Shown here piece after piece: positions 7,858 through 61,440 of a DNA stretch of 64,000 bases. Origin of the DNA: Candidatus Sulfomarinibacteraceae bacterium (GTDB taxonomy: Bacteria; Acidobacteriota; Thermoanaerobaculia; Thermoanaerobaculales; Sulfomarinibacteraceae); contig CAVQQV010000034.1 of the NCBI GenBank assembly GCA_963714885.1, forward strand, positions 8,702-72,701, in the 5' to 3' direction. Position 1 is the stretch's first letter, and each line of letters begins with the position of its first letter. Made by a program: the position numbers and the translations under genes. The notes beneath the pieces were generated by a model. It ran no database searches. It was not told the DNA's origin and worked only from the letters and a program-made list of their open reading frames with translations.

Positions 7858-10494
7858 ATGAACAGGACCAGAACCGGACTGTGGTGCCGCGTCCTCGCCG
7901 GGGCGTTTGGTCTCGTGCTTTTCCAGGCCTGCGCTGGACCTGAGGCCCCCATCGTGGGCTCGAGGACATTGTCCGACGGATGGGGGCTGAGGGCGGCCTC
8001 TGAAGTTTCCGGAGACGGCACCGCCGTGTCGCTGCCCGGATTCGACGCCACCGGCTGGTACTCCACCGACGTGCCGTCGACCCCGATGGCGGCGTTGGTG
8101 GCCAATGGCCTCTACCCGGACCTTTACGTCGGCAAGAACCTCGAAGGCGTGGACACCGCGCAATTCAAACAGGCGTGGTGGTACCGCACCGAGTTCGACG
8201 TCTCTCCCGAGGAGGCGAAGAGGGCGGCTCGCCTGGTTTTCAACGGCATCAACTACAGCGCCGAGATCTGGCTGAACGGGGAACGCCTGACATCCCGCAA
8301 CCAGACGGTCGGCGCCTTCCGGGTCCACGAGATCGAGGTGAGCGGGCGATTGACCGCGGGCCTCAATGCCCTGGCGGTCGCGGTCCACCCGCCGCAGCCG
8401 GGCGACTTCACGCTCGGCTTCGTCGACTGGAACCCCCGGTCCCCGGACAACAACATGGGGATCTGGCGACCGGTGGAGCTGCGGCTGACGGGCGATGTGT
8501 CGCTCGACGACGTGTACGTCCAAACCGACGTGGATCTTCCGGAAGGACTGACGGCTGGGGTCACGATCTCGGTCACCGTCAGGAATCACGGCGCCGAGCA
8601 GGTGAAATCGGTGGTGAGCGGAGAGATCGGCACCGTTGTTTTTTCCGCTGACGTCATCCTCGCGCCCGGCGAGGGACAGGTCGTTGATTTCACACCGGAC
8701 GATTATGATGTTTTGACCTTTGCCGAGCCCCGCCTGTGGTGGCCACACACCATGGGCAAACCCGATCTCTACCGGTTGGATATGAAGGCCGTGGTCGCCG
8801 GAGAGATCTCCGACACCGAAAGGACCACCTTCGGAATTCGCGAGGTTTCGACCTATATCAACGACGACGGCCACCGCGGTTTTGCGGTCAATGGCGAGCC
8901 GGTGCTGATTCGCGGCGGTGGGTGGGTCGATGATTTGCTGCTGTCGGATACTCCGGCCAAGATCGACGCCCAACTCGCGTACGTCAAGCAGATGCACCTC
9001 AACACGATCCGCTTCGAGGGGTTCTGGGGCTCGAGTCAGTACCTCTACGACGCGGCAGACCGAGAGGGCGTTCTGATCATGCCGGGCTGGAGCTGCCAGT
9101 GGGAGTGGGAGAATTACGTCGGAAAACCGGTGAGTGAGGACTACGGCGGTGTGCTGGAACCCGAAGAGATGGATCTCGTGGCGGCGTCTCTCGGCGACCA
9201 GATCCGCTTTCTGCGCAACCACCCGAGCATCTTCACCTGGGTTCTGGCCAGTGACCTGCTGCCGCACCCGGATCTTGAGCGCCGGTACGAAAAGGTACTG
9301 ACCGAAACCGACTCAACGCGCCCGCCGCTGGTGTCATGCGGCTGGCTCACCTCCGAGGTCAGCGGACCGAGCGGCGTCAAGATGAGGGGGCCCTATGACT
9401 GGGTGCCGCCGGTCTACTGGTGGTCCGACACCGAAAACGGCGGCGCCTACGGGTTCAATACCGAGACCGGCCCGGGACCGCAACCGCCGCCGCTGGAGAG
9501 CCTGCGGCGGATGCTCCCCCCCGAGCATCTGTGGCCGATCGACGAGGTGTGGAACTACCACTGCGGCCGTGGCGAGTTCAGCGACATGAACCGCTACGTG
9601 GAGGCCCTCGACCGGCGCTACGGTTCGTCGGAGTCAGTGGAGGAGTTCGCCATGAAGGCGCAGGTGGCCAGCTACGAGGCCATCCGCCCCATGTTCGAAA
9701 GCTTCGCAGTCAACCGGCCTTTGACCACAGGCCTCATCCAGTGGATGCTCAACTCGGCATGGCCGGAGACCTACTGGCAGCTCTACGACTGGTACCTGAT
9801 GCCGAACGGAGCCTTTTACGGCACGCGGGCGGCGAGCCAACCGCTGAATCTGTCCTTCAATTACGACGATTCTACGGTGTATGCGGTGAACGACTCGCGA
9901 TGGGCGCGGGAGGGGTTGACCGCGTCCGTTCGAGCGTTCGATCTCTCAGCGAAGGAGATCTTCGGGCAATCGTTCAACATCGCCCTTGAGGAGGGCGGCT
10001 CGCAGCCGCTCGTATCGCTGGCAGATCTTGAGCCGCCGACCACGGTGTGGTTCCTCGATCTCCGGTTGAACGATGCCGCGGGCGTGGAGGTGGCACGCAA
10101 CTTCTACTGGCTGTCCACGAAGCCCGACGTGCTCGATTACGACAACAACCTGTGGTATGTGACCCCAACGAAATCGTTTGCGGACTTCTCCGCCCTGAAT
10201 GATCTGCCGGTCGTGGAACTCGAGATTTCGACTTCCGTCGCCAACAACGAGGTGCAGGTCCGTCTGACCAATCCGTCAGACGGACTGGCCTTCTTCGTTG
10301 AACTTCGAGTGGTGGGTGAGGACGGCAATTCGATTCTCCCGGTATTGTGGAATGACAATTACGTTTCACTCCTCCCGGGCGAGGGCCGAGATCTGACTGC
10401 CCGGTTACCTGGGGTGAAGGATCTATCGGGGGCGGTCGTGAAGGTTCGGGGGTGGAATGTGGCGGCCACCGAGGTCGGCCTGGCGACGGATTGA
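7858..10494 (+). CDS. Glycoside hydrolase family 2 lipoprotein (exo-beta-D-glucosaminidase / beta-mannosidase-like branch)
   Basis: ATG 7858 is preceded by AGGAGG. Lipobox-like LVLFQAC. GH2 N-terminal sugar-binding motifs WWYRTEF and LVFNGINYSAEIWLNGERL, with a TIM-barrel region (HLNTIRFEGFWG, IMPGWSCQWEWE). The subfamily call is from memory of CsxA-like proteins, not a search. Confidence 0.75.
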   Translation: MNRTRTGLWCRVLAGAFGLVLFQACAGPEAPIVGSRTLSDGWGLRAASEVSGDGTAVSLPGFDATGWYSTDVPSTPMAALVANGLYPDLYVGKNLEGVDTAQFKQAWWYRTEFDVSPEEAKRAARLVFNGINYSAEIWLNGERLTSRNQTVGAFRVHEIEVSGRLTAGLNALAVAVHPPQPGDFTLGFVDWNPRSPDNNMGIWRPVELRLTGDVSLDDVYVQTDVDLPEGLTAGVTISVTVRNHGAEQVKSVVSGEIGTVVFSADVILAPGEGQVVDFTPDDYDVLTFAEPRLWWPHTMGKPDLYRLDMKAVVAGEISDTERTTFGIREVSTYINDDGHRGFAVNGEPVLIRGGGWVDDLLLSDTPAKIDAQLAYVKQMHLNTIRFEGFWGSSQYLYDAADREGVLIMPGWSCQWEWENYVGKPVSEDYGGVLEPEEMDLVAASLGDQIRFLRNHPSIFTWVLASDLLPHPDLERRYEKVLTETDSTRPPLVSCGWLTSEVSGPSGVKMRGPYDWVPPVYWWSDTENGGAYGFNTETGPGPQPPPLESLRRMLPPEHLWPIDEVWNYHCGRGEFSDMNRYVEALDRRYGSSESVEEFAMKAQVASYEAIRPMFESFAVNRPLTTGLIQWMLNSAWPETYWQLYDWYLMPNGAFYGTRAASQPLNLSFNYDDSTVYAVNDSRWAREGLTASVRAFDLSAKEIFGQSFNIALEEGGSQPLVSLADLEPPTTVWFLDLRLNDAAGVEVARNFYWLSTKPDVLDYDNNLWYVTPTKSFADFSALNDLPVVELEISTSVANNEVQVRLTNPSDGLAFFVELRVVGEDGNSILPVLWNDNYVSLLPGEGRDLTARLPGVKDLSGAVVKVRGWNVAATEVGLATD

Positions 10495-48876: not shown

Positions 48877-49110
48877 GAGTCCGTACCTCCCCTTGAATCT
48901 CGGCCAATCGTAACGTTCCCGAAACCAGGTGTCGATCTTGGTGCAGGCGGTTCATGGCGGCATGGACAGCAGCTCACACGGTTCGCCGCTCTCGTCGTGT
49001 GGATGGCGGACGGCAGCATGAAACATCAGACGGTCGCAGAGAAACTTTGAGCGCGACCGCTTTCGCCGAACCCGCGTGCAGGTGAACTGAACCCCGGGCG
49101 GGCGGTCGTT

Positions 49111-50568
49111 TCAGGCGGACGGCGGCCCGTCCTCGAGCCACCGACGGAGGAATTCGTTGCCGACGGTGTAGTGACCGGACGGGTCTCTTCGAACGAGGCC
49201 GAGATTTTGGAGATTCGCCAGACTCGTACGGGCCTCGGTCGGTGGATCCGGCGGGGCGCCGCCAGCCGATTTCAGCTCGGATGCGGGATTGGTGGCGAGT
49301 TGGATCAGAATGGCGCGCTCGGCCTCGTTGATGAGATTGAAATCGACCGAGAAAAAGAACGACACCGCGCGGTCGTTGTGGACCTCTTCGATCGCATCGT
49401 CAAGAGTGCCGTGATCGAGTGCGTGGCGACACAACATCTGGATCAGGTAGGGGTGGTCTCCGCAGAGGTCTCGGATGCGTTCGATGTGCCGATCGGCGAA
49501 ATCCGGCCGTGAAGCCTCCGGGAGCTGCGTCTGAAGAATCAGAGCGCGGGCGTCGTCGACATCGAGGGGACCAATCGCAAGCGGTGGTGTGAATCCGTCA
49601 AGAAACGGGGAGGTGTCCTCGCCGGCATCGGCAAGCTTCCACAATCGGCTGCTCGAGGCCAATACCGAGCGGATGCCCTCCCGCGACTGCAGCGCCCGAC
49701 GCAGCTTTCTCAGCAGCGAGGGGTCCTGGCGGTTGAGGTTGATCAACTCCTCCACTTCATCGCACAGGAGCAACAGGCGCAGGTTTTTCGCAAGTAGCGC
49801 TCGTCGCATCCTGGCCAGTGAGTCGAAGCAGTCCTCCGACTGAATTTCTGCCAACGGGATGCCCGCCCCCTCGAGGTGCTCTTCAGCGTCGAGCAGTGCA
49901 TCTGCAAAATCGAGGTGGAACTCTTCGGGCCGGTCCGCTCCCTGGAGGTCCCAGAAGACGGGAACAAACCCGAGATCCGGTGAGGTCGCCGCGATCAGTT
50001 CCAGCTGCTTGAGCAGCGAGGTCTTGCCGATCCTGCGGGTTCCGAGCAACCACAACCAGTTTCGATTCCCCACGAGCACTTCGTGGATCGCGGCCTTTCT
50101 TCCATAGAACCTCTCACCGCGAACCCACTGTCCGATCACGTACGGCAGCGGGACCTCGCCGGTGCGATGGGCGGACTCGGACTGTCGTGAGAGGACCGGC
50201 CCTCCACCGCGGTGGTTCTCGTACTCGACGTCGGCGATCAACCGATAGCCCCGCTTCGAAATCGTCTCGATATAGCGAGGGCTCTTGACGTCGTCGCCAA
50301 AGGCGCGCCGCAGCCCGGCAATGGATCGTGTGATCACCGACTCGGTGATAAAGACGTCGGACCACACCGCATCGGTGATTTCGTTTTTGGAGACGACCCG
50401 CCCGGCGTTCGACGCCAGAAACACCAGAACATCCATCAGCTTGGGTTCGAGTTGGATCACCTGAGCCTCTTGCGAAAGCCGGTTGAGGCTCGGTTGGACG
50501 AGCCAGTCGGAAATTCTGAATTCAGCGGCGGCGGGCGGCTCGGAATTTTTATAGCGGTCCATTTCCAC
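49111..50568 (-). CDS. OmpR/CadC-type winged-helix DNA-binding domain fused to a STAND-like P-loop NTPase (module 1, output = DNA binding)
   Basis: N-terminal Trans_reg_C pattern: IQLEPKLMDVLVFLASNAGRVVSKNEITDAVWSDVFITESVITRSIAGLRRAF..IETISKRGYRLIA. Then GQWVRGERFYGRKAAIHEVL, Walker A LLGTRRIGKTSLLKQLE, Walker B LLLLCDEVEEL, and a C-terminal winged-helix-like LQNLGLVRRDPSGHYTVGNEFLRRWLED. The core is paralogous to that of 57012..58928. Confidence 0.8.
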   Translation of the reverse strand: MEMDRYKNSEPPAAAEFRISDWLVQPSLNRLSQEAQVIQLEPKLMDVLVFLASNAGRVVSKNEITDAVWSDVFITESVITRSIAGLRRAFGDDVKSPRYIETISKRGYRLIADVEYENHRGGGPVLSRQSESAHRTGEVPLPYVIGQWVRGERFYGRKAAIHEVLVGNRNWLWLLGTRRIGKTSLLKQLELIAATSPDLGFVPVFWDLQGADRPEEFHLDFADALLDAEEHLEGAGIPLAEIQSEDCFDSLARMRRALLAKNLRLLLLCDEVEELINLNRQDPSLLRKLRRALQSREGIRSVLASSSRLWKLADAGEDTSPFLDGFTPPLAIGPLDVDDARALILQTQLPEASRPDFADRHIERIRDLCGDHPYLIQMLCRHALDHGTLDDAIEEVHNDRAVSFFFSVDFNLINEAERAILIQLATNPASELKSAGGAPPDPPTEARTSLANLQNLGLVRRDPSGHYTVGNEFLRRWLEDGPPSA

Positions 50569-50573
50569 GCATT

Positions 50574-51284
50574 CTATCCCGGACTCGCGTCGGAGAGAGG
50601 GTCGACGCCGACGGGCGCTATCCGAATTTCCTCGAAGAAGTTGTACCAGGGGCTGCCCTCCTCGACCCAGTGTTTGTCGATTTCGACCGCCGTCGCCACC
50701 ATGACCAATGCACCATCGAGACTCATCATGAAGAGACTCCTCACCCTCTGGGTGGTCCGTGGCGTGTAGTGGTTGAGTTCGTCAATCCCGTCGACCAGCA
50801 ACACCAGCCGGGGGCGTCCACCTTCGCGTTTCTTGAGCGCGCGGATGATCCTGCGCAGATCGTGCGCGAGATCGCGGTGGCCGTAGCCGGTGTGAGTACC
50901 CTCGGGACCCGCCAAGTGTTCGGGCCGGAGCTGATCGAAAACGGCCCCACTCACTGTCGAAAACAGCACGTTTTCTGGAATGCTGCGCAGGTTGACGTAG
51001 ACGGGGAAAAAGGTGCTGGTGCCTCTGCCTGCCGACAGACGGTCTTTGAGATCGAGAAGGATAGCTGTTTTTCCGCTCCCGGGCGGTCCACAGAGCAGAA
51101 TGCTGTTGTTGTGGATCGTGCTCAAGATGCGCTGGGTCAAACGCTCGGACCAATGATCGACCCGCGCCGGTCCAGAAGGTGTCATCTCCTCTCGACCGTG
51201 TCCGCCGAAACGGCGCACAAAGCGGGCGATGGCAAACGCGGAAGTGCGAACGATGTTCATTGGTCGGTTCTTTCGTCTGCCCAC
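50574..51284 (-). CDS. Stand-alone P-loop ATPase of the 'SPWYNFFEE' type (module 1 partner)
   Basis: RILSTIHNNSILLCGPPGSGKTAILLDL (Walker A), LVLLVDGIDEL (Walker B), and the C-terminal EGSPWYNFFEEI. It is a paralogue of the cytoplasmic domain of 58912..61311 but lacks the signal, TPR and TM parts and ~65 C-terminal aa. The start is GTG 51284 or ATG 51260. Its stop lies 5 nt before the next start. Confidence 0.7.
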   Translation of the reverse strand: MGRRKNRPMNIVRTSAFAIARFVRRFGGHGREEMTPSGPARVDHWSERLTQRILSTIHNNSILLCGPPGSGKTAILLDLKDRLSAGRGTSTFFPVYVNLRSIPENVLFSTVSGAVFDQLRPEHLAGPEGTHTGYGHRDLAHDLRRIIRALKKREGGRPRLVLLVDGIDELNHYTPRTTQRVRSLFMMSLDGALVMVATAVEIDKHWVEEGSPWYNFFEEIRIAPVGVDPLSDASPG

Positions 51285-51353
51285 AGACAGGACGACTTCA
51301 GGGTCGAATCCTCCTCTCCCTCTCTAAACTAGGCAGAGGGGGATCGAGAGTCT

Positions 51354-51399
51354 TGAGGGTGTGATGAGGCTCCGATGAGGATTTTCCTCGTGCTAGGAT
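51354..51399 (+). promoter_or_regulatory. Three TGAGG direct repeats at 11-bp phasing plus a conserved -10-like block upstream of FadL-like gene 1
   Basis: TGAGG occurs at 51354, 51365 and 51376, exactly 11 nt apart. TAGGAT (51394-51399) starts 18 nt after the last repeat start. ATG follows at 51412. The block TGAGGaTTTtCCtCGTGcTAgGATC is 20/25 identical to the block at 55625-55649. Confidence 0.55.
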
Positions 51400-51411
51400 C
51401 TTTGGGACTCC

Positions 51412-52794
51412 ATGGTGGGCCCGGGCGCTGTTGACACAACCATGCAAGCTCGACTTCGACTCATGCTGCTCGCTTTGGTGGCCATCGCGCCGGCGATGAC
51501 TTCCGCCCAGGAGACCCCTGCCACCTTCGAGTTCAGCTTCTCAAACCCCGGAGCGCGCAGCCTGGGTCTCGGCGGCGCGTTTGCAGCCTTTGCCGACGAC
51601 GCGACCGCCGCCTTTTCCAACCCCGCCGGTCTGGTCCAGCTCGTCCGGCCGGAGGTGTCAGCAGAGCTTCGTCATTGGCGATACACGACGCCATACATCG
51701 AGGGAGGGCGATATGAGGGCGAGCCGACGGGGATCGGTCTCGATACCACCAGCGGTCTTCGAGCTTCGGAATCCGAAGAACAGCTGACAGGGCTGTCCTT
51801 CCTGTCGTTTGTGTATCCAAAAGGGAAGTTCTCCCTCGCGGTCTACCAGCATCAGTCGGCGAAATTCAAGGCCGAGACCGAAACCCAGGGTTTGTTTCAC
51901 ACCGGCGGCACCGGCACCGGGGTCTTTCGAACCCATGACCGTCGGTGGTCGACCGATCTCGATATCGTCAGCTATGGCCTGGCGGGCGCCTACAGGGTCA
52001 GCGATCACCTGAGTGTCGGTCTGGGTCTGGTGTACTTCGAGGGACGGCTGGACGCCCCGTTCGAGTGGACCTTTTTCGACGACTCAACGCTCGATGGCTT
52101 TTATGGACCGAACTCCTACCTGCCGGAGCGACGGCTGGTCACTGGAGACATGGCGATCGATGATTCCGACTGGGGGTTGAATGCGGGTCTTCTGTGGACC
52201 TTCGCCGAACGTTGGAGCCTCGGCGCCTTTTACCGCCAGGGGCCTGAGTTCGGTGTGGTGTACGGTGTTGTTGCCGGACCCATAGCCCCCCTGTTCGAGC
52301 CGGCGCTCACGGAAGGTGCGACAGTGCTGACGATCTCGACACCGATGCAGTTCCCGGACGTGTACGGTCTCGGTCTGGCCTACAGATCGAGCGACGGCAA
52401 GCTCGCGGTTGGCTTCGAGTGGGATCGCGTCGAGTACTCATCGATCTTCGGCAGCTTCGATCCGGTGGTCATCGAAAGTATCGATGACGACCTCGATCTC
52501 GGCATCGAGTTGGTGGCTGAAGACGGCGACGAGTTCCATCTCGGTGCGGAATACGCGTTTCTCGATCTCAAACCCGTGATCGCGGTCCGTGCGGGTGTCT
52601 GGCTCGATCCCGATCACCGTTTCCACAGCATCAGTACCGACCCGGAGCACCAGGCCCTGTTCCAGGCCGGGCAGGACGAGGTTCATCTGGCCCTGGGAAT
52701 CGGGCTCGCCTTTTCGTCGTTTCAGATTGACCTGGCAGCCGACTTTTCGGACCTCGTTGACACCTTCTCGTTGTCGGCGATCTACAGCTTTTGA
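51412..52794 (+). CDS. FadL/TodX-family-like outer-membrane beta-barrel (paralogue 1)
   Basis: Signal peptide LMLLALVAIAPAMTSAQ. N-terminal family motif FSFSNPGARSLGLGGAFAAFADDATAAFSNPAGL. Alternating beta-strand pattern. C-terminal beta-signal SLSAIYSF. Confidence 0.75.
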   Translation: MVGPGAVDTTMQARLRLMLLALVAIAPAMTSAQETPATFEFSFSNPGARSLGLGGAFAAFADDATAAFSNPAGLVQLVRPEVSAELRHWRYTTPYIEGGRYEGEPTGIGLDTTSGLRASESEEQLTGLSFLSFVYPKGKFSLAVYQHQSAKFKAETETQGLFHTGGTGTGVFRTHDRRWSTDLDIVSYGLAGAYRVSDHLSVGLGLVYFEGRLDAPFEWTFFDDSTLDGFYGPNSYLPERRLVTGDMAIDDSDWGLNAGLLWTFAERWSLGAFYRQGPEFGVVYGVVAGPIAPLFEPALTEGATVLTISTPMQFPDVYGLGLAYRSSDGKLAVGFEWDRVEYSSIFGSFDPVVIESIDDDLDLGIELVAEDGDEFHLGAEYAFLDLKPVIAVRAGVWLDPDHRFHSISTDPEHQALFQAGQDEVHLALGIGLAFSSFQIDLAADFSDLVDTFSLSAIYSF

Positions 52795-52799
52795 CCACA

Positions 52800-52931
52800 T
52801 CACATGGCAGCGACGAATATGAGGACCACCAACAAGATCAAAGCGGTGAGGACGGTGACCGGCACGTCGGCCGGTCTCGGTTCGCCGCTGGTACCGTACG
52901 GTGGTGTGTAGCCGCGACGTTGCGGTTCCAT
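52800..52931 (-). CDS. Untracked 43-aa tail-anchored membrane peptide downstream of the beta-lactamase-fold gene
   Basis: My manual translation gives GAGGAGGAAAACC-ATG, with ATG at 52931-52929. The peptide is MEPQRRGYTPPYGTSGEPRPADVPVTVLTALILLVVLIFVAAM, with TGA at 52802-52800. It is too short for the 60-aa track. It lies 42 nt after the upstream stop on the same strand. Confidence 0.5.
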   Translation of the reverse strand: MEPQRRGYTPPYGTSGEPRPADVPVTVLTALILLVVLIFVAAM

Positions 52932-52973
52932 GGTTTTCCTCCTCTTGGCATCGATTGAGATGGTCACTGGGTC

Positions 52974-55541
52974 CTACCGTTTCATGGAGATGGCTGTGCC
53001 GTCGTTGGTGCGGTTGTCGATGACCGACGCGTAGGCGATCAGCCCCTGCCCGGACTGGACGTGGACCGTTGCATAGCCGGCGTCGATGTCGGTACGGCCC
53101 GCGATGCGGGCGAACGGTTCCTGCAGCTGCAGCCACCCACCGGGCCCCAGGGTCCTCGATCGTGACGCCAGCTCGACTCCGGAGCTGTCGAAGAACGTCA
53201 CCCGCATACGCGCCTCGGTCTCGCCGGTGTTGACGAGACCGACATTGGTTCGGAAGAGGTCGTTTTGCAGCAGGTGCGGCAGCCAGACCGTGCCTCCCTC
53301 CCGGCAACTGTCCGCTCCTGAAATGCCGTCGAGAAACAAACCATAGGTGCCGAAGTCGCTCGCGTTGTAGGTTCGAGACGCGACCATGACCGGGCTCGAA
53401 GACTGAATCTCCACCGAACCGGAACCCTCCGCGCCGACCGAGGCCACGACGTCGCCGATCGTCCGTTGCTCGCCATCGTCAAGGGTCACGACAACGTTGC
53501 TGGAGGTCCCATTGTCGCCACGAAAACGAACGTCAACGGTCGCGGTTTCGCCGGAGCGATTGAGGAGACTGAGGTCTGTGCGCCACTGGCTCTCATGGGC
53601 ACCCTCGCCGTGGACGGCGGCCGCGATCCACTGCAGATGATGCCCCTGGCCGGTTTTCATCGGAATCGAGGTGGGGTCCCCGGTCACATTGTCGATGACC
53701 GATGCAGAGGCGTAGACATCCTGCCCCGAGACCACCGTGATCACGGCATAACCGGAGGCGACGTCGTCGCGGTGGCCGAGCTTGAAAAACGGTCGGTTGA
53801 GCTGCACCGTCTGCTGGGGCGCGATCTCCCTGGTATGGCCGGTGATCAGCGAGCCGTCGCCGTCAAACAGAGCGATCTCGACGACCGCCGACCGCCGCCA
53901 CTGATTGTGAATGCCGATGTTGGTGCGAGCTGCGTCGTCCTCCTGCAGCTGCATCAGCACCGCCGATTCGCCGGACTCGAGGCCACCGGTGGCGGTCACA
54001 CCGTCGAGGGACTGGCCGAATGTTCCATCGATGGACTGGTTGTAGGTTCTCGAGGTCACGGTGAGGCCCTCCGATGAGAAGACCTGGAGAGGGCCGGAAC
54101 CGCTCCGGCCAAACCACTCGACCGCGTCCGAAATCACGCGCGATTCTCCGGGCGCCAGCTCGACCTCGCGATCGACCGGTTGATTGCCACGGTGAAGCCT
54201 CAGACGGACGACGTTTGTCCTTGACGACCGGTTGAGCAGACCGACGTCGGAGCGCCAGGTGCTGTCCCCGACGCCGTCGGCATGAGCGACGGCAGGAATC
54301 CACGATTCGGCCGTCGCCGAGCCCACGGGCTCGGTGGAGATGCAGACCGTTTCCCAGAGATCATGGTCGGGCCACGATGTGATTTCGGGGAAGTCGATGG
54401 TCGGAGCGATGGGGTCTTTGTTGGTGAATATGACGAAGACGATGCCGTCCGAGCGCCACACGGCGAGAGTGTGGACGCCGCCGCCTCCCCCTCCGTGGCC
54501 GAAGACCTGGTGTTGATCGTTCGGATTCGTGAGCCAGCCGACGGTGTGGCCGGAATTGGTGAAAAAGTCCTCATTGACCCAGCCGCGTCCGTATCCCACT
54601 TCTTCTCCTGCGGCGAATGGAATAGACAGCATCTGATCGACCGTCCCGTTGTCGAGCAGACCGCTGGCCTCAGGGTCGTCGAAGAGCGCGGAATAGACCC
54701 GCGCCAGGTCGGGGGCGGACATCACCATGAGGCCGGCCGCGAAGGCGTTCTCGGTGATCACCGCGTAGGGATCACCTTCGAGACCGTCGTAGGTCGTCTC
54801 GGTGGGGGCCAGATCGGAGGGGAGAGTGTGGGGGAGGCGGGCACGAGACACGCCGACGGGCCGGAAGATGTTCTCGAAGACAAATTCCGGAAAGTCCTGA
54901 CCGGTGACCTGCTCGACCAGCATGCCGAGCATGATGTAGCCGTAGTTGTTGTAGTCCCACGCCGTCCCGGAATCAAAGAGGAACGGATTGGCAACGATGT
55001 AGGATGCGATTTCCTTCCTCGTGGTTGGCTGCCCGACGCCGTGGGCGGCGGCGACCACACCGTCCACCTCATAGATGTTGTCTTCCGAGTACATGCCGCT
55101 CGTGTGGGTCAACATATGGTCCACGGTCACCGAGTCGAGGCGCGGGTCCACCCGCCAGTCCCACAGTGGATCCACTTCGAGTCCGGACATGACCTCCGTG
55201 TCGTAGGAGAGTGTTCCGTCTTCGATGAGCTGATGGACAGCGATCGAGGTGATCGATTTGCTGATGCTGGCGATGCGAAACAGGGTGGTGGGTTGGATGG
55301 GCTCAACGGAGGGGTCGTCCCAGGTGAATCCCCTTGCGTAGACGAGACGGCCGTCTTTTGCGATCGCCACCGAGCTGCCGCGGATAGAGTGGGTCTGCAT
55401 GATGTCCTGCATCATCAGGTCCACCGCGGACAGTTCGGGGATCGCCTGTCCGGTGACACTCCACTGACGCTGGGCGGCCGCGGCGGCAGCCACCATCAAC
55501 AGGGCTATGAGAACGGTGACGGTCTTTTTCGTGGTTTGCAT
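52974..55541 (-). CDS. Secreted beta-lactamase-fold (class C / family VIII esterase-like) serine hydrolase fused to four copies of an unassigned ~105-aa beta-sandwich-like repeat
   Basis: ATG 55541 follows GAGGGGG. Signal peptide VLIALLMVAAAAAAQ. S-x-x-K motif (FRIASISKSITS), Y-x-N motif (WDYNNYGY) and a third box (VFGHGGGGGG). The C-terminal ~440 aa are repeats (see the repeat feature). Confidence 0.75.
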   Translation of the reverse strand: MQTTKKTVTVLIALLMVAAAAAAQRQWSVTGQAIPELSAVDLMMQDIMQTHSIRGSSVAIAKDGRLVYARGFTWDDPSVEPIQPTTLFRIASISKSITSIAVHQLIEDGTLSYDTEVMSGLEVDPLWDWRVDPRLDSVTVDHMLTHTSGMYSEDNIYEVDGVVAAAHGVGQPTTRKEIASYIVANPFLFDSGTAWDYNNYGYIMLGMLVEQVTGQDFPEFVFENIFRPVGVSRARLPHTLPSDLAPTETTYDGLEGDPYAVITENAFAAGLMVMSAPDLARVYSALFDDPEASGLLDNGTVDQMLSIPFAAGEEVGYGRGWVNEDFFTNSGHTVGWLTNPNDQHQVFGHGGGGGGVHTLAVWRSDGIVFVIFTNKDPIAPTIDFPEITSWPDHDLWETVCISTEPVGSATAESWIPAVAHADGVGDSTWRSDVGLLNRSSRTNVVRLRLHRGNQPVDREVELAPGESRVISDAVEWFGRSGSGPLQVFSSEGLTVTSRTYNQSIDGTFGQSLDGVTATGGLESGESAVLMQLQEDDAARTNIGIHNQWRRSAVVEIALFDGDGSLITGHTREIAPQQTVQLNRPFFKLGHRDDVASGYAVITVVSGQDVYASASVIDNVTGDPTSIPMKTGQGHHLQWIAAAVHGEGAHESQWRTDLSLLNRSGETATVDVRFRGDNGTSSNVVVTLDDGEQRTIGDVVASVGAEGSGSVEIQSSSPVMVASRTYNASDFGTYGLFLDGISGADSCREGGTVWLPHLLQNDLFRTNVGLVNTGETEARMRVTFFDSSGVELASRSRTLGPGGWLQLQEPFARIAGRTDIDAGYATVHVQSGQGLIAYASVIDNRTNDGTAISMKR
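52977..54302 (-). repeat. Intragenic tandem duplication: 2 x ~216 aa, each made of two related ~105-aa units
   Basis: Unit 1 (54302-53655) and unit 2 (53630-52977) align as follows. WIPAVAHADGVGDSTWRSDVGLLNRS..VTSRTYNQS.DGTFGQSLDGV...DDAARTNIGIHNQ...ASGYAVITVVSGQDVYASASVIDNVTGDPTSIPMK versus WIAAAVHGEGAHESQWRTDLSLLNRS..VASRTYNASDFGTYGLFLDGI...NDLFRTNVGLVNT...DAGYATVHVQSGQGLIAYASVIDNRTNDGTAISMK. Confidence 0.65.
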
Positions 55542-55591
55542 GGCGAACCCCCTCGTCTCCATCAATGTGGGGTTTCGACAGCGCCAGCGCT

Positions 55592-55648
55592 TGAGGGAAT
55601 ACTGAGGTCGCCGTGAGGGTCTTTTGAGGCTTTCCCCCGTGTTACGAT
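55592..55648 (+). promoter_or_regulatory. Four TGAGG direct repeats at 11-bp phasing plus a conserved -10-like block upstream of FadL-like gene 2
   Basis: TGAGG occurs at 55592, 55603, 55614 and 55625, exactly 11 nt apart. TACGAT (55643-55648) starts 18 nt after the last repeat start. ATG follows at 55656, only 7 nt after the hexamer. The same intergenic region serves the divergent beta-lactamase-fold gene. Confidence 0.55.
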
Positions 55649-55655
55649 CCACACC

Positions 55656-57005
55656 ATGAACCGCGTGGATCGTAATCTGTTCCGTGGTTCTGTGACGCGG
55701 TGTTTCGTGCTCATGGTCGCTGCCGCTGCGGCACAGCTGATGCCGAGATATTCGGTGGCGCAGGAAGCGCCCCCCGCGCTCGAGTTCAGCTTTTCCAATC
55801 CCGGCGCCCGGAGCATGGGTTTGGGCGGCGCATTCGTCGCTTTGGCCGATGACGCAACCGCCGCCTTTGCCAACCCGGCCGGTCTCGTTCAGTTGCTGCG
55901 GCCCGAGGTGTCACTCGAGTTGAGGAGGCGGAATTACTCGACCCCATACACTGAGGGGGGACGAGCCTCGGGTTCGCCAACCGGATTCGGTATCGATACC
56001 GTCGATGGTGTTCGAACCGCAACCTCGAACGAGACGACGTCTGGAGTGTCCTTTCTCTCATTCGTCTATCCGGGCACGAAGTGGTCGCTGGCCCTGTATC
56101 GACATCAGCTCGCTGATTTTTCGGTGAGTACGGAAATCAACGGTCTCTTCGGCGACGCCATTGAGGGCGGAACCAGGCGCTACGAAGACCAGCCGATAAC
56201 CACCGATCTCGAAATCGTCGGAACTGGCCTCTCGGGCGCCTACCAGGTGAGTGAACGTCTCAGCGTCGGGTTCGGGCTGACGTACTTCGCGGGCAGCGTC
56301 GAGAATCATGGGGCGGCCTACTCTGTCGACAGCTTCCCGGAGACCTATTGGGACGAGAATTCGTTTCTACCCCACAGACAGATTGTGACCAGCAGCTTCG
56401 TAGTTGATGAAACGGACATCGGGTTCAACGTCGGCTTCCTGTGGCAGTTCGCCGAGAGCTGGCGCCTCGGGGGCGTGTATCGGCAGGGACCGCGATTCGA
56501 CTACGAGCTCTACAATCGCGCCGGACCCCTCAACGATGAGCCAGAGGGGACCGTCCTCGAGGCCGTGACCGACCGCTCCATCGCCTTTCCGGATGTGTGG
56601 GGATTGGGCGTCGCCTACCGATCGCCGAATGGGAGTCTGACCGTCGGTTTCGAGTGGGATCTGGTCGAGTACTCGGTGATTCTGGAGACGCTTGATTCCG
56701 AGCAGGTCGACACGACGGATGTTGCAATGGACGACGCGAACGAGCTGCACCTCGGGTTCGAGTACGTGTTTCTGAAAACGAAACCTCTGATCGCGGTTCG
56801 CGCCGGGCTGTGGCGCGATCCGGACCACCGGTTTCGATATGAAGGCGACGATCCGTTCGCAAGTGCTCTGTATCAGCCCGGAAAGGACTCGTTGCACGTC
56901 ACCGTCGGCGTTGGGGTTGCATTCAAGAGTTTTCAAATCGACCTCGGGGCCGACCTCTCGGATCGTGCCGACGTCTTGTCGCTGTCAGCGATCTACAGTT
57001 TCTGA
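55656..57005 (+). CDS. FadL/TodX-family-like outer-membrane beta-barrel (paralogue 2)
   Basis: Signal peptide. FSFSNPGARSMGLGGAFVALADDATAAFANPAGL, and the C-terminal VLSLSAIYSF. It is collinear with 51412..52794 throughout. Confidence 0.75.
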   Translation: MNRVDRNLFRGSVTRCFVLMVAAAAAQLMPRYSVAQEAPPALEFSFSNPGARSMGLGGAFVALADDATAAFANPAGLVQLLRPEVSLELRRRNYSTPYTEGGRASGSPTGFGIDTVDGVRTATSNETTSGVSFLSFVYPGTKWSLALYRHQLADFSVSTEINGLFGDAIEGGTRRYEDQPITTDLEIVGTGLSGAYQVSERLSVGFGLTYFAGSVENHGAAYSVDSFPETYWDENSFLPHRQIVTSSFVVDETDIGFNVGFLWQFAESWRLGGVYRQGPRFDYELYNRAGPLNDEPEGTVLEAVTDRSIAFPDVWGLGVAYRSPNGSLTVGFEWDLVEYSVILETLDSEQVDTTDVAMDDANELHLGFEYVFLKTKPLIAVRAGLWRDPDHRFRYEGDDPFASALYQPGKDSLHVTVGVGVAFKSFQIDLGADLSDRADVLSLSAIYSF

Positions 57006-57011
57006 TCCTGT

Positions 57012-58928
57012 CTATCGGAGCCCGGCCGCTATGCGCCGGAGGGCCTCCTCAACCTGCACCGCACTCGAAATCCGTTCCGCCGGGTCCTTGGCGAGGCAGC
57101 GCAAGGTGAGGGCTGCGAGCTCCCCCGGAATTCCAGGCGCGATCGTCGACGGGTCGGGGGGGAGGGCGGTGCGCTGCATGGCAAGAACCTCAGCCACAGT
57201 GTTGGCCTCGAACGGCCGCCGGCCGGTTGCCATCTCGAAGATCACGAGCCCCAGCGCATAGAGATCGGATCTTTCGTCGAGCGGGCCCAGGGCGACCTGT
57301 TCGGGCGACGCGTAATGTGGCGTGCCGACAAACACGCCGTGCTGGGTGAGGCCCTGCTCACCGATCAAACGGGCAAGGCCGAAATCGGCGAGGTACGGTT
57401 CGCCATCCTCATCCATCAGGATGTTGCCGGGTTTGACGTCGCGGTGAAGGACGTTTCGTTCGTGTGCGGATGCCAGTGCCGATGCGAGCTTCGAAGAAAT
57501 ACTGAGAACCACCGGCACCGGAAGCGCCCCACACTCCGAGATTCTGTCGGCGAGCGTCCCTCCGTTGATCCACTGCATGGTGATGTATGTTCCGCCCTCA
57601 TACGAGGCCAGGTGATAGGCACGGAGGATGTTGGGGTGGGCGAGATCACGTGACAGAAGGATCTCCTGTCGCACCCGATCGAGCGCTGAGGGGTTGGCCG
57701 TGTACTCCGGTTTGAGCAGCTTGAGAGCAACCCAGGTGTCGAGCATGGTGTCGCGGGCCTTGAAAACGCTGCCGGTCGCTCCCGTGCCGACTTCCTCGTG
57801 CAGTGTGTACCGGCTGTCGATGGTCCTCAGAGATATCGTGAGGTCCCCGCTTATCGAGGCAGACTGTGGCGGAGGTGCCTGTGGCGCGGTGTCCAGATCT
57901 TCGAGCCAGCGCCGCATGAAAAAACTCGGCAGCACATAGCTCCGGTCCTCATCGCGACCGATGAAACCGAGGTTTTCGAGCCGCTGCAGGGCGTCGTCCC
58001 GGTCGGCGGTGTCGGCCTTCATCACGGCGTGAAGTGATGCATCGGTAGCCCTCTCTTGCTCGGCAATCAACCGGAGGACCGTCTTCTCGGTGGCAGACAG
58101 CATCTCGAAATCGACCGAAAAGAAGTAGTTGATCATGCGATCGGTGGCGACCTGGCGACAGGCTTCGTCGAAATCGCCGGTCTCCAGGAAGCGTTTGCAG
58201 ACCAGCTGGACCAGGTAGGGGTGGTTGCCGCAGCGGAGACAGATTTCGATCGCGTCTTTCTCGCCGATCTCCGGCCGAGATTCCGGTGTGGTGTGGTCCT
58301 GTCGAACGAGGGCGAGGCTTTCGTCGGTGGAGAGGCCGTTGATGTAGAGCGGTGGGCTGAAGCCATGGAGGAATGGCGATGTGTCGCCCCTCTGTTCCGA
58401 GAGTTCGCACAGCCGGACCGACGAGGTGAGCACCGAACGAACACCCTCCTGGGACTGCATGGCGCGCCGAAGTTTGCGCAACAGCGCGGGATCCTGGCGG
58501 TGGAGATTGAGGAGTTCCTCGACCTCGTCGCAGAGGAGGAGGAGCGAGCGCCCCTGGCTCGTGAGCAGGCGGCGGAGTCTGGCCATCGAACTGAAGAGGT
58601 CCCCGCTTTCGAAATCGGAGATTTGAATGCCAATATCGCCGAACCTTTCTTCGGCGTCGAGCAGGGCGTCCGAAAAGCTGAGATGGAGTTCTTCCGGGTC
58701 GTCGGCTCCCTGAAAATCCCAGAAGATCGGGACGTACTCTCGCCCGTCGGACGTGGCCAGAAACTCGAGTTGTTTGAGCAGGGACGTCTTGCCGATCCTT
58801 CGAGTGCCCAGGATCCAGAGCGAGTTTCGAGGACCGTCGAGGATTTCCTCGATCAGACCGCTCCGCCCATAGAAACGATCACCGCGGACCCACTGGCCGA
58901 CCACGAAGGGGTTAGGTCCTGGCTTCAT
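57012..58928 (-). CDS. STAND-like P-loop NTPase fused to a C-terminal Hanks-type Ser/Thr protein kinase (module 2, output = kinase)
   Basis: ATG 58928. The core is GQWVRGDRFYGRSGLIEEIL, ILGTRRIGKTSLLKQLE, LLLLCDEVEEL and LENLGFIGRDEDRSYVLPSFFMRRWLED. The kinase has VGTGATGSVFKA (G-loop), WVALKLL, HRDVKPGNIL, LADFGLAR and GTPHYASPEQ. The first 50 aa of the track ORF are over-extension. Confidence 0.85.
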   Translation of the reverse strand: MKPGPNPFVVGQWVRGDRFYGRSGLIEEILDGPRNSLWILGTRRIGKTSLLKQLEFLATSDGREYVPIFWDFQGADDPEELHLSFSDALLDAEERFGDIGIQISDFESGDLFSSMARLRRLLTSQGRSLLLLCDEVEELLNLHRQDPALLRKLRRAMQSQEGVRSVLTSSVRLCELSEQRGDTSPFLHGFSPPLYINGLSTDESLALVRQDHTTPESRPEIGEKDAIEICLRCGNHPYLVQLVCKRFLETGDFDEACRQVATDRMINYFFSVDFEMLSATEKTVLRLIAEQERATDASLHAVMKADTADRDDALQRLENLGFIGRDEDRSYVLPSFFMRRWLEDLDTAPQAPPPQSASISGDLTISLRTIDSRYTLHEEVGTGATGSVFKARDTMLDTWVALKLLKPEYTANPSALDRVRQEILLSRDLAHPNILRAYHLASYEGGTYITMQWINGGTLADRISECGALPVPVVLSISSKLASALASAHERNVLHRDVKPGNILMDEDGEPYLADFGLARLIGEQGLTQHGVFVGTPHYASPEQVALGPLDERSDLYALGLVIFEMATGRRPFEANTVAEVLAMQRTALPPDPSTIAPGIPGELAALTLRCLAKDPAERISSAVQVEEALRRIAAGLR

Positions 58929-61311
58929 CGATTCCCGCGACCGCATCGACGTCGGCGGTCGTGATCTGCCGTCGTCCCTCCTCGTACATCCGGTTGACGA
59001 GAGCGATGCAGAGCCTTTGAACCCGGTACGGTTTGCGGTCGGTGAGCTCGATGATGCTGTCGACCACGGCACCGTCAAACTTGAAAACCCCGCCGGTCGG
59101 TCGTGTGATCAAGTCGATCGCGTGGTCCCGCTCGATCGGCGTGACCTCGATCTCCTCGAAGAAGTTGTACCAGGGGCTGCCTTCTTTGTCCCACTGCTTG
59201 CGGATCTCGACTCCCGAGACCACCGCGACGAGGTTTTCGGCAAAACTCTTCATGAAAAGGCTTCTCAGACGTTGGTTGACACGGGGGTCGTAGGCATTGA
59301 GTTCGTCGACCTCGTCGATGAGAAGCACCAGCTTGACCTGCTTTTCGCTTCTGGCCTTGAGGGCCTTGATCACCTTCCGGAGATCGTGCACCAGTTCGCG
59401 GTAGCCATAGACCGATCCCTGGGGAACATCAGCACCGACCGTCGCACCGTCGAGCAGTGGGGCCAGCTCGTGAAAGATGTCTTCAGCCAGGGTGGAGAAA
59501 AACTGCGACTCGGGGGTTCCCTGGAGATCGATATAGACCGGGTAGAACGCGTACTGCGGGTCGTCGAGCTCGAGCAGCCGCCGCCTGATGTGGTGTTGCA
59601 GCGAGGTCTTGCCGATTCGGCGTTCGCCGTACAACAGAAGACTGTTGTTGTGGATGGTCTGCAGGATCCTCTCGACAAGTTGTTCCCTTCCAAAGAACAT
59701 TTCACGATCGAGCACCGGCGCGCCGGCGATGTAGGGGTTGAATCGCCGCGTGATGAGCTGGCGCCGGCGTCTGGCCCGGAACGCCCAGACTCCGGCGAGA
59801 ACGGCGATCGGCAGCGCGGCTATCACGAGTTGGAACCAGAGTGATCTGTAGAACGGCACCGCGTAAAGGACGGTGTACTCTGCGCTCGAACTCAGACCGG
59901 CGCTGTCGGTGGCGGTGAGGGAGTAGACCGACCATCCTGAGCGGAGACGCTCGGTGAGCGTGAACTCGGTGACGAAGTACTCGCCCACAGCCTGGCTGGT
60001 GCTGTGTCCTTCGATCTGCCGGCCTTCAGGGCCCTGGAATCGGATGTCGACTGGAGAGTTGTCGATCACCACGCCATTCAGGCGAAAGTCCGGTGTCCTC
60101 ACAACCTGGATCTTCATCCCGTCGGGCTGGTCGCTTCTGAAATCGGCGAAGCGAATCGCGGGGGGGATATTTTCGACAGTTCGCGATCCAAGCAGCCGGC
60201 TGCTGATCTCGCCGTAGGCTCTGCGGACCTGTCCGAGAGCCGCGACGTTTCCCGGGTCGATCGCGAGCACGCGGTTGGACGCCGAAATGGCGGCCTCGAA
60301 CTCGCCGGCCGCGTACAAACTGACGGCTTCCTGGAGCGTGCTGTTCAGGGACTCCTGAACGACAATCCTCTTTTGAGCCTCGAGGATTCGGCGCTGAATC
60401 TCGGCTGCCGCTGCGTTTGTCGGATCGGCTGCGAGAACTCTCTGGAGTTGGTCGAGGGCCGCGGAGAACCGCCCTGACTGTTCGAGGTCTCGAGCCTGGC
60501 TCAACCCTGTCGTGACCGCGGCCTGCCGTGCGCCCGCATCTTCCTCGGCCCGGATCTCTGCCGCGAGGCCGGCCCGCGCCTGATCGAGAAGTTGTTGGGC
60601 CGTTGTGTCTGGTTGCAGCGAAAGGGCCTGTTGGAACAGGCTCGATGCCTCCGCGAAGTTGCCGTCGTCGAGGTCAGCTCTGCCGCGGCTGATCAGATCC
60701 GCCGCCCGGGCGCCGTCGAGTCGTTGGCGCTCCCGCCGAACGACCTCGGTCCGCAGTTCCTGCATCTTGGCGGTTGCGTCGGGGTTTTCCTGGTCCACGG
60801 CGAGACCCTCACCGAGAGCATCCATGGCTGCCTCGAGCCGGCCCTGACGCTCGAGAATCTCGGCCTCCCGGAGGCTTTCACGGACGATCTGCGATGTGCG
60901 CTCGCTCTCCATGTTGGCGACGTCCTCGCGTGCGTTGAGGGCCAACTGTCGGAATCGTTGCAGCTCCTCCATGTCCGTTTTCGAGGCTTGAATCGCGCCC
61001 AGTTGCTCCTCGGTCTGAAATGCCTGCAGCGCGGCTTCGTACTGCCCGAGATGGTGGTAGGCGATGCCGAGCTTGAGGTAGGGAAAGTACGCGACAACCT
61101 TCATCCCGTACGAACGGACTCGTGCTCCCGAGTCGCCCTTACGCTCGAGGGCCTGTTGGAGCTCCTCGACGGCGTCGCCCCATTTCCCATCGGCAAGGGC
61201 GGCTTCGGCCCGTGCATAGTGCTCGTACCAGTAGTCGGCCCAGGCGGTCGGGGCGGGCGCCCATAACGTGCACACGATCACCGCGTATGCAACCAGCACG
61301 CGACCTTTCAT
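58912..61311 (-). CDS. Membrane sensor-like protein: signal peptide, TPR-rich ectodomain, Ig-like segment, one TM helix, cytoplasmic 'SPWYNFFEE'-type P-loop ATPase (module 2 partner)
   Basis: ATG 61311 (MKGRVLVAYAVIVCTLWAPAPTAWA). TPR-like repeats (YFPYLKLGIAYHHLGQYEAALQAF, ..AEASSLFQQALSLQPD.., AISASNRVLAIDPGN). TM helix LWFQLVIAALPIAVLAGVWAF followed by RARRRRQ. ATPase: RILQTIHNNSLLLYGERRIGKTSL, LVLLIDEVDEL and EGSPWYNFFEEI. It overlaps the kinase gene start by 17 nt. Confidence 0.8.
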   Translation of the reverse strand: MKGRVLVAYAVIVCTLWAPAPTAWADYWYEHYARAEAALADGKWGDAVEELQQALERKGDSGARVRSYGMKVVAYFPYLKLGIAYHHLGQYEAALQAFQTEEQLGAIQASKTDMEELQRFRQLALNAREDVANMESERTSQIVRESLREAEILERQGRLEAAMDALGEGLAVDQENPDATAKMQELRTEVVRRERQRLDGARAADLISRGRADLDDGNFAEASSLFQQALSLQPDTTAQQLLDQARAGLAAEIRAEEDAGARQAAVTTGLSQARDLEQSGRFSAALDQLQRVLAADPTNAAAAEIQRRILEAQKRIVVQESLNSTLQEAVSLYAAGEFEAAISASNRVLAIDPGNVAALGQVRRAYGEISSRLLGSRTVENIPPAIRFADFRSDQPDGMKIQVVRTPDFRLNGVVIDNSPVDIRFQGPEGRQIEGHSTSQAVGEYFVTEFTLTERLRSGWSVYSLTATDSAGLSSSAEYTVLYAVPFYRSLWFQLVIAALPIAVLAGVWAFRARRRRQLITRRFNPYIAGAPVLDREMFFGREQLVERILQTIHNNSLLLYGERRIGKTSLQHHIRRRLLELDDPQYAFYPVYIDLQGTPESQFFSTLAEDIFHELAPLLDGATVGADVPQGSVYGYRELVHDLRKVIKALKARSEKQVKLVLLIDEVDELNAYDPRVNQRLRSLFMKSFAENLVAVVSGVEIRKQWDKEGSPWYNFFEEIEVTPIERDHAIDLITRPTGGVFKFDGAVVDSIIELTDRKPYRVQRLCIALVNRMYEEGRRQITTADVDAVAGIDEART

Positions 61312-61440
61312 GTCGGAGCAACGCACCGGATGACGGTCACCGGCCTTCCGAGCCTGAGGCGCAACGGCGTCATGTGTGTGCATACGCTATCCCGCGTCGA
61401 GTGTAACAGGCGACACGAAGGCGATGGATCGTCGCGCGGC

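Follow-up and report, generated by a model that had tools for sequence, protein, structure and literature searches.

Which protein reads a set of phased repeats in front of an outer membrane transporter gene, and with what effect? This question is raised by a locus of a Candidatus Sulfomarinibacteraceae bacterium (phylum Acidobacteriota) contained in a 64,000-nt stretch of contig CAVQQV010000034.1 (positions 8,702 to 72,701; hereafter, the window), where an array of TGAGG repeats with an 11-bp step stands upstream of each of two FadL-like genes, FadL1 and FadL2. An earlier inspection of the letters alone (the original prediction) had singled out the array at FadL1. As presented below, the array is conserved, is kept at a fixed distance from an extended −10 element, and co-occurs with a gene for a protein that joins a winged-helix DNA-binding domain to a STAND ATPase. 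We favor, with moderate confidence, the reading that the repeats are binding sites for this winged-helix/STAND protein, which would bind them head-to-tail as an activator and substitute for a −35 element.

Phased repeats and an extended −10 element

At the FadL1 site (site 1), TGAGG starts at 51354, 51365, and 51376 of the forward strand, with a start-to-start step of exactly 11 nt. Each core plus the 6 nt that follow makes up one unit: a distal unit 1 (51354 to 51364; core 51354 to 51358), a unit 2 (51365 to 51375; core 51365 to 51369; consensus aTGAgGnTCtg), and a promoter-proximal unit 3 (51376 to 51386; core 51376 to 51380). The last core is followed by a conserved spacer, ATTTTCCTCG (51381 to 51390; family consensus nTTTTCCCCG), and then by TGcTAGGAT (51391 to 51399), which is assigned as an extended −10 element on the basis of its conservation and has no −35 partner. 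The TG occupies 51391 to 51392 and the hexamer TAGGAT occupies 51394 to 51399, 18 nt past the start of the last unit and 13 nt beyond the proximal core. Transcription of FadL1 would start near 51406 to 51407. The proximal core would then lie at about −30 to −26, adjoining the would-be −35 position, and the center of unit 1 at about −50 (at about −37 when counted from the predicted divergent promoter described below). Site 1 thus has a repeat that abuts or replaces the −35 element of a promoter without a −35 consensus.

The FadL2 site (site 2; 55592 to 55648, forward strand) contains four TGAGG units, starting at 55592, 55603, 55614, and 55625, followed by TGtTACGAT, whose hexamer (55643 to 55648) is again offset by 18 nt from the last unit start. 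Both −10 hexamers are extended, with TG two bases 5′ of the hexamer (TGnTAnnnT), a feature that the original prediction does not mention. The 25-nt blocks 51376 to 51400 and 55625 to 55649 are identical at 20 of 25 positions, a count made by hand that agrees with the alignment. Beyond the array and the promoter block, the intergenic DNA of the two sites could not be aligned convincingly. The step, the shared 18-nt geometry, the 20/25 identity, and the lack of similarity in the surrounding DNA had all been claimed in the original prediction, and all were borne out.

Chance is excluded as the source of the phased array. The triple TGAGG pattern was matched three times in the window, always inside sites 1 and 2, while 0.00 matches were expected from 100 dinucleotide-preserving shuffles; the double pattern was matched five times versus 0.16 expected. 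Arrays scoring at least 14/15 occurred only at the 11-bp spacing, on the forward strand, and at these two sites. None were found at spacings of 9, 10, 12, 13, 21, or 22 bp or on the opposite strand.

Other kinds of element were sought at the same place. A sigma-70 scan of 51200 to 51500 returned no −35/−10 pair. An ordinary sigma-70 promoter at site 2 was rejected; its one weak match (TCGACA-17-AATACT) lies inside a non-conserved spacer. An RNA element was rejected as well: Rfam, searched at a permissive E-value, gave no match in 49000 to 57500, and the array lies between two predicted −10 elements and is therefore probably not transcribed.

Conservation of the array and of its geometry

To follow the array across relatives, we examined 73 genome loci encoding FadL relatives, each covering ~6 kb on either side of the FadL gene (~13 kb per locus; individual loci are cited by an L number). 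Arrays scoring at least 14/15 were present upstream of FadL-like genes in 11 of the 73 loci; all of these arrays are on the coding strand, and loci with one at each of the FadL1 and FadL2 positions are frequent. A metagenome scan of the whole collection, for which the pattern was the array plus TGnTA, gave 69 matches: 53 at FadL-type loci of this kind, 15 in unrelated simple tandem repeats, and one at locus L103, considered below. In all, 52 non-identical FadL promoters were obtained; they come from sediment metagenomes and from genomes resembling Ca. Sulfomarinibacteraceae. One metagenome contig, L088, matches the window exactly.

Three units are found in 32 of the 35 FadL1-type promoters and four in 16 of the 17 FadL2-type promoters. 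Of the 52 promoters, 49 have the −10 element (TGnTA) 18 nt from the last unit, an offset that was built into the metagenome scan pattern; among 19 promoters selected by synteny, the value is exactly 18 nt in 17 (L023 copies with indels were left aside). The earlier proposal that TA(G/C)GAT is the −10 element is supported by this regularity. The family consensus of array and promoter is cTTGAGGatgggATGAGGatctgaTGAGGGTTTTCCCCGTGCTACGATc. In a logo of the unit made from the 19 synteny-chosen promoters, the bases T, G, A, (G), and G carry 1.8, 2.0, 2.0, 1.1, and 1.9 bits; after one free base, T at +6 carries 1.0 bit, and the remaining positions carry at most 0.5 bit. The unit is TGAGGnT plus four weakly constrained bases, i.e., a 7+4 unit of 11 nt. 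The unit 1 position reads TGAGG in 17 of these 19 promoters. Degenerate arrays (e.g., TGATG, GGAGG, TGAAG, GGAGG) occur in L003 and L008, with phase and 18-nt offset unchanged.

The two promoter types keep their own signatures across genomes (three as opposed to four units, and a G as opposed to a C behind the last core), and the cores are fixed while spacers and flanks drift between relatives. Since, in addition, FadL1 and FadL2 are only 53% identical, the sequence comparisons support the view, already put forward in the original prediction, that the array is a selected cis element shared by the two genes and not the product of a recent duplication.

One metagenome-assembled genome (MAG) contig, L001 (regions 1700 to 1830 and 3150 to 3260), has two tandem FadL1-type genes. 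The promoter retains the CCCCGTGGTACGAT block; no TGAGG array and no regulator genes were found within 1.8 kb upstream. The idea that L001 represents a natural loss of both regulator and array was rejected: an array is still present beside the small ATPase gene in L014, which belongs to the same MAG.

The start codons bear on the suggestion that both mRNAs are nearly leaderless, which fitted the FadL2-type promoters and failed for FadL1. FadL2 (55656 to 57005, forward strand) begins with an ATG 7 nt after the −10 element, and an in-frame ATG or GTG is found exactly 7 nt after it in 14 of 17 FadL2-type promoters. Because this distance is fixed while the 7-nt gap varies in sequence, it supports the −10 assignment and suggests that the FadL2 mRNA is probably leaderless. 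At FadL1-type promoters, a start codon 5 to 8 nt after the −10 element occurs in only 3 of 35 cases. The ATG at 51412 in the window, 12 nt after the −10 element, is not conserved according to the start-codon comparison; the conserved start lies 40 to 47 nt downstream of the −10 element, which in the window corresponds to the ATG at 51442 (~42 nt after it). FadL1 (51442 to 52794, forward strand; FadL/TodX family; Pfam Toluene_X, 4.6e-15) thus read begins with MQARLRL..., has a signal peptide, and probably has a leader of ~35 nt.

The predicted FadL1 leader (51400 to 51441) contains partly conserved segments, e.g., GTGCCGCCCG, which is found ~10 to 20 nt after the −10 element in many loci. At FadL2, a perfect 11-nt inverted repeat, TTACGATCCAC/GTGGATCGTAA (55642 to 55652 and 55665 to 55675), spans the −10 element and the start codon. 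It was set aside, not being conserved in relatives, including the closest one, L117.

A winged-helix/STAND protein and the divergent side of the array

The genes on the other side of site 1 had been described in the original prediction as a divergent ATPase pair. Both products carry ATPase domains, as stated, but one of them also carries an OmpR/CadC-type DNA-binding domain, which had been overlooked and which gives the best hint of the mechanism. The first gene of this divergent operon in the window encodes a small P-loop ATPase of 236 amino acids (50574 to 51284, reverse strand) with intact Walker A and B motifs and Pfam matches to AAA_16/NACHT. Its start is ambiguous (GTG 51284 or ATG 51260), as it is in several relatives. 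The second encodes the winged-helix/STAND protein of 485 amino acids (49111 to 50562, reverse strand), the candidate reader of the array; its conserved Met is codon 3 of the open reading frame 49111 to 50568. Pfam places Trans_reg_C (1.9e-17) at residues 36 to 110 and ATPase domains (nSTAND1, ATPase_2, and AAA_22) from about residue 150. The STAND motifs GTRRIGKT and LLLLCDE are present and Walker A and B are intact; the protein combines a nucleotide-binding oligomerization module (NOD) with a DNA-binding effector domain, as STAND activators do.

An AlphaFold2 (AF2) model was used for domain boundaries and fold matches only. It consists of the winged-helix domain (residues 17 to 116), a disordered linker (118 to 161, ~35 residues), and the P-loop, helical, and C-terminal winged-helix subdomains; the protein ends at residue 485, and neither Pfam nor the model revealed a BTAD, TPR, or receiver domain. 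The DNA-binding domain is closest to Escherichia coli CadC (5ju7; E-value 1.3e-23; ~41% identity) and Vibrio cholerae ToxR (8b4b; 2.4e-12). In Foldseek searches, the N-terminus matched CadC and ToxR-DNA complexes with TM-scores of 0.85 to 0.87 and root mean square deviations of 1.2 to 2.0 Å, and the rest of the protein matched archaeal PF01637 ATPases (2qen and 2fna), ORC/Cdc6, and CED-4. Among orthologues that are 62 to 91% identical, the recognition helix shows little or no variation. Its residues T80-R81 align with T77-Q78 of ToxR, the reported base-reading residues (PMC12802830). ToxR uses them on A/T-rich sites; the arginine (R81) of the candidate would be compatible with the G-rich core of the array.

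Comparison with other genes of the window indicates where the divergent pair may have come from. By tblastn, the STAND part of the winged-helix/STAND protein is ~50% identical to that of a STAND NTPase with a C-terminal Ser/Thr kinase (57012 to 59078, reverse strand), and the small ATPase matches the C-terminal STAND-type ATPase of a TPR protein (58912 to 61383, reverse strand). Judging from this paralogy, the divergent pair (49111 to 51284) is a remodeled duplicate of the kinase module (57012 to 61383) in which a DNA-binding domain has replaced the kinase. Out of 1.84 billion representatives, only about ten 50%-identity clusters could be matched along the winged-helix part as well as the STAND part; ~200 clusters match at E-values of 1e-30 or lower, mostly through the STAND part alone or with C-terminal extensions.

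The presumed parental module is itself widespread. A FadL-like gene is linked to TPR-STAND and STAND-Ser/Thr-kinase genes in many Acidobacteriota (Thermoanaerobaculia, Holophagales, and Marinacidobacterales), often as a three-gene cluster on the same strand (window 55656 to 61383; loci L016 to L072, e.g., L045 5971 to 11677). We found no description of this outer membrane transporter/double-ATPase/kinase module in the papers searched.

To relate the array to the regulator, the 300 nt upstream of every FadL-like gene in the loci examined were scored in an unbiased way; the opposite-strand control never exceeded 11. In loci that encode the N-terminal winged-helix domain, all 20 FadL upstream regions score 12 to 15 of 15. 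In loci without it, 81 of 89 regions score at the background level of 7 to 11. The eight exceptions are at L013, L014, L015, and L023. L015 and the regulator-bearing L009 belong to one MAG, L023 contains the regulator as frameshifted fragments, and L014 has the paired small ATPase gene at the contig edge. All metagenome contigs with enough flanking sequence upstream of the site 1 array encode the small ATPase and the winged-helix/STAND protein. Distant Acidobacteriota keep the FadL/TPR-STAND/STAND-kinase cluster and have neither the winged-helix fusion nor the array.

The array also has a constant relation to the opposite strand, where a −10-like hexamer starts exactly 22 nt from the distal array edge. 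At site 1 this is TAGTTT (51326 to 51331, reverse strand), and TAGCTT or TAGTTT occupies this position in 31 of 39 three-unit arrays. At site 2 it is CACATT (55564 to 55569, reverse strand), which recurs in 23 of 30 four-unit arrays. The intervening 22 nt vary, and a GGAGG ribosome-binding site follows the divergent hexamer. We infer that the array lies between back-to-back promoters, at a fixed distance from both. At site 1 the divergent promoter points at the regulator operon, which makes the autoregulation suggested in the original prediction plausible.

Many relatives have a further gene at the head of the divergent side of site 1, located between the array and the gene for the small ATPase and encoding an OmpW-family outer membrane protein (PF03922, 1.7e-11); an example is L002 5157 to 5858, of 233 amino acids. 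This gene has been lost from the window (51285 to 51331), where the divergent −10 hexamer and, as a remnant, the strong Shine-Dalgarno-like sequence that precedes the OmpW-family gene in many relatives (GGAGAGGAGGA, 51309 to 51319, reverse strand) are kept. The divergent promoter of site 2, which shares the site 2 array, would serve a gene for a secreted serine hydrolase of the beta-lactamase family (52974 to 55541, reverse strand; 855 amino acids, with a signal peptide; Pfam Beta-lactamase, 1.6e-53). The hydrolase has a C-terminal extension of ~450 amino acids with repeated segments (...SRTYN... and ...ASVIDN...) and no Pfam match in it.

Rearranged loci show that the array can persist without a FadL promoter. 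In L003 (~10098 to 10165) and L005 (~10158 to 10290), FadL2 and the kinase gene are deleted just after the last unit, and the array is kept beside the hydrolase gene. In L065 (9188 to 9300), a BrnT-like toxin gene directly after the array replaces the FadL promoter side; the array is still accompanied by the genes for an OmpW-like protein and the winged-helix/STAND protein, and TAGGCT occurs at a distance of 23 nt. The L065 regulator, of 43% identity, has the same T-R helix. Retention of this kind is expected if the array also serves the divergent promoters.

How the array may be read

The organization of the array, with 7+4 direct repeats of 11 nt standing in the place of a missing −35 element, bears the hallmarks of OmpR/PhoB-type activators. 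The PHO box consists of two 11-nt units with seven conserved and four less conserved bases, on which the protein binds in tandem and contacts sigma-70 (PMC4415409). The array shares with it the 11-nt direct-repeat units, the shape of the unit logo, the head-to-tail order (three to four 7+4 units on one strand), and the replacement of the −35 element. It differs in its core (TGAGGnT compared to CTGTCAT in E. coli) and in its candidate reader, which has no receiver domain, so that control would be exerted via the STAND ATPase and not by phosphorylation.

A closer parallel in protein architecture is provided by AfsR of Streptomyces, in which an OmpR-type domain is fused to a STAND (NOD) ATPase. 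AfsR binds two 11-bp repeats at −40 to −19, overlapping the −35 element (PMC10936776). As in the array, the repeats of the afs box are direct and overlap or replace a poor −35 element; they accept one protomer each, as the units of the array would, and the downstream repeat starts at about −29, compared to about −30 here (PMC10936776). The Ser/Thr kinase paralogue module nearby (57012 to 59078) recalls the pairing of AfsK with AfsR. However, the candidate reader lacks BTAD and TPR domains and its winged-helix domain belongs to the CadC/ToxR branch; there are three to four repeats instead of two; and the targets are outer membrane transporter genes in Acidobacteriota instead of antibiotic clusters. 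According to the SARP rule, repeats are 11 or 22 bp apart and the 3′ repeat is 8 bp from the −10 element (PMC10936776), and the array has the 11-bp step, with a −10 element 11 bp beyond the heptamer or 7 bp beyond the full 11-mer, close to the rule but not identical with it. Membership in the SARP family (AfsR, ActII-ORF4, and EmbR-like proteins) was rejected, as Pfam detects no BTAD and the AF2 model has only a disordered linker in its place. The protein is not a large SARP of the AfsR type either: the NOD is present and TPRs are not, and the only TPRs are in the separate paralogous protein (58912 to 61383).

The closest relatives of the DNA-binding domain itself, in both sequence and structure, are ToxR, TcpP, and CadC, activators whose tandem binding ahead of a promoter is combined with contacts to RNA polymerase (PMC12802830). 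ToxR controls genes for outer membrane proteins (ompU and ompT), and outer membrane transporter genes are found here. The candidate has the N-terminal winged-helix domain of this group. In contrast to its membrane-anchored members with periplasmic sensors, it would be a cytoplasmic STAND fusion: a soluble STAND NTPase was found in place of a transmembrane helix and periplasmic sensor, with no dedicated transmembrane predictor having been run.

MalT, another STAND transcription activator, also acts on several repeated boxes in its target promoters, and its multimerization allows cooperative binding to them (PMC4381067). It differs in having a C-terminal LuxR-type helix-turn-helix domain, a large SUPR sensor domain, and boxes of other spacing and geometry. 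The MalT-dependent malP promoter region of E. coli K-12 (in the malP-malT intergenic DNA; L143; NC_000913 ~3552540 to 3552600) contains GGATGAGG and, on the other strand, GGGGATGAGC, which resemble the (a)TGAGG unit. Kinship with MalT boxes was rejected given the different class of DNA-binding domain, and the resemblance is probably coincidental; the MalT box consensus was compared with the malP region only.

The remaining match of the metagenome scan, L103, comes from Usitatibacter-like Betaproteobacteria, where three TGAGG repeats of the same geometry (2499 to 2560, reverse strand) precede a gene for a winged-helix/TPR regulator. It was rejected as independent support and is treated as an analogue only: the base-reading positions are A-N as opposed to T-R, and the orthologous L140 has no array. 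A further orthologous locus, L141 (1440 to 1503), has another 11-bp-phased triple repeat, ATAACGC, followed by TGCTAGGCT and by an ATG 6 nt later. L103 and L141 alike have a TGn-extended −10 element with an ATG 6 nt behind it, in front of genes for winged-helix/TPR regulators. A layout in which three phased repeats are followed by an extended −10 element and a leaderless start may thus recur more widely at genes for winged-helix regulators.

The favored reading can be put together as follows. The array would provide three (at site 2, four) head-to-tail sites for an OmpR-type winged-helix factor, all on one face of the helix given that 11 bp is about one turn, and their most likely reader would be the winged-helix/STAND protein (49111 to 50562) produced from the divergent operon. 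On a signal, the STAND module would multimerize in a nucleotide-dependent manner, perhaps jointly with the small ATPase transcribed along with it. Several winged-helix domains would be brought into register in this way and bind the units cooperatively. The promoter-proximal protomer would take over the −35 contact, and RNA polymerase would be recruited via sigma region 4 or the alpha C-terminal domain. FadL1 and FadL2 would be switched on from the array, as would the divergent promoters, that is, those of the regulator's own operon (with the OmpW-family gene in many relatives) and of the secreted serine hydrolase. Together, these targets would form a coherent regulon for the uptake of hydrophobic substrates.

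Several points weigh against activation by this protein. The co-occurrence of regulator and array is clustered in one family plus the outliers L008 and L065, and shared ancestry could produce such a pattern. The loci cover ~6 kb on each side of FadL, and other regulators or targets may be located elsewhere in the genomes. The winged-helix/STAND protein has no recognizable sensor domain, and its AF2 model is of moderate confidence (pLDDT 69, pTM 0.44). Simple class II activation does not account for the strong conservation of the spacer TTTTCCCCG. Finally, an extended −10 element may be active without an activator, which would favor repression.

Repression by the same winged-helix/STAND protein is the alternative that survives best, although we consider it rather unlikely. 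A bound multimer would block RNA polymerase at both promoters, which would be intrinsically active, until a signal arrives. Promoters with an extended −10 element (TGnTAnnnT) can function without a −35 element, and the array covers about −26 to −63 as well as the −35 region of the divergent promoter. ToxR-family proteins can repress as well as activate; ToxR is reported to repress ompT (PMC6733452). However, the strict orientation and the exact 18-nt spacing in 17 of the 19 synteny-chosen promoters fit contacts between protein and polymerase, and occlusion requires neither. The closest architectures are also activating ones: the PHO box (PMC4415409), the afs box (PMC10936776), and TcpP bound at −52 to −35 (PMC12802830).

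We regard it as unlikely, too, that the array is read by another OmpR/PhoB-family protein encoded elsewhere, such as a phosphorylated response regulator, with the winged-helix/STAND gene being linked to FadL for other reasons. The unit structure and geometry would suit any factor of the OmpR/PhoB type (PMC4415409), the view of each locus is limited to ~13 kb, and the betaproteobacterial L103 has the same array before a gene with no such STAND protein in view. On the other hand, the winged-helix/STAND operon and FadL1 directly flank the array in every locus that extends far enough; L065 retains the regulator by the array despite the loss of the FadL promoter side; and at distant FadL loci the winged-helix domain is missing along with the array. 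The L103 array, which is not kept in orthologous loci, provides no evidence for a general reader.

It is very improbable that no dedicated protein reads the array and that it either remains from a duplication or gene conversion between the two promoters or acts through DNA structure, for instance by phased bending. The two sites are only 4.2 kb apart beside paralogous genes, but each has preserved its own signature in many genomes, the cores hardly change while the spacers do, the FadL paralogues are only 53% identical, the repeated cores form no phased A-tracts, and the fixed distances to two −10 elements would be left unexplained.

Activation by the winged-helix/STAND protein can be combined with the apparent origin of the regulator into a broader scenario, which we offer tentatively. 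In marine Acidobacteriota, a duplicated two-ATPase STAND module may have swapped its Ser/Thr kinase output for a ToxR/CadC-type DNA-binding domain, yielding a minimal winged-helix/STAND protein and a separate small ATPase. Nucleotide-driven oligomerization would serve as a ruler that places three to four DNA-binding domains on 11-bp-phased sites. One array would then control two back-to-back promoters, in a regulon comprising two FadL genes, one OmpW gene, one secreted serine hydrolase gene, and the regulator's own operon.

The locus reveals no new kind of regulation. Its cis-logic is classical; what is unusual is the architecture of the regulator and its origin by exchange of an output domain. 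We found no published description of the array or the gene cluster, the Sulfomarinibacter literature being concerned with metabolism. Promoter logic in Acidobacteriota, especially in uncultured lineages of marine sediments such as Ca. Sulfomarinibacteraceae, is almost uncharted, and the locus provides a concrete pair of a cis element and a candidate regulator, with an 11-bp unit, an extended −10 element without a −35 element, and a probable leaderless transcript of a paralogue. The architecture of the candidate reader is rare, with the about ten clusters noted above matching over both parts. If the proposed mechanism is true, the principle known from AfsR and MalT, in which STAND oligomerization gates cooperative DNA binding, would extend to the ToxR/CadC branch and to a new phylum and would be linked to outer membrane uptake of hydrophobic substrates. 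The locus would also show how a signaling module with a kinase output can be rewired into a transcription factor.

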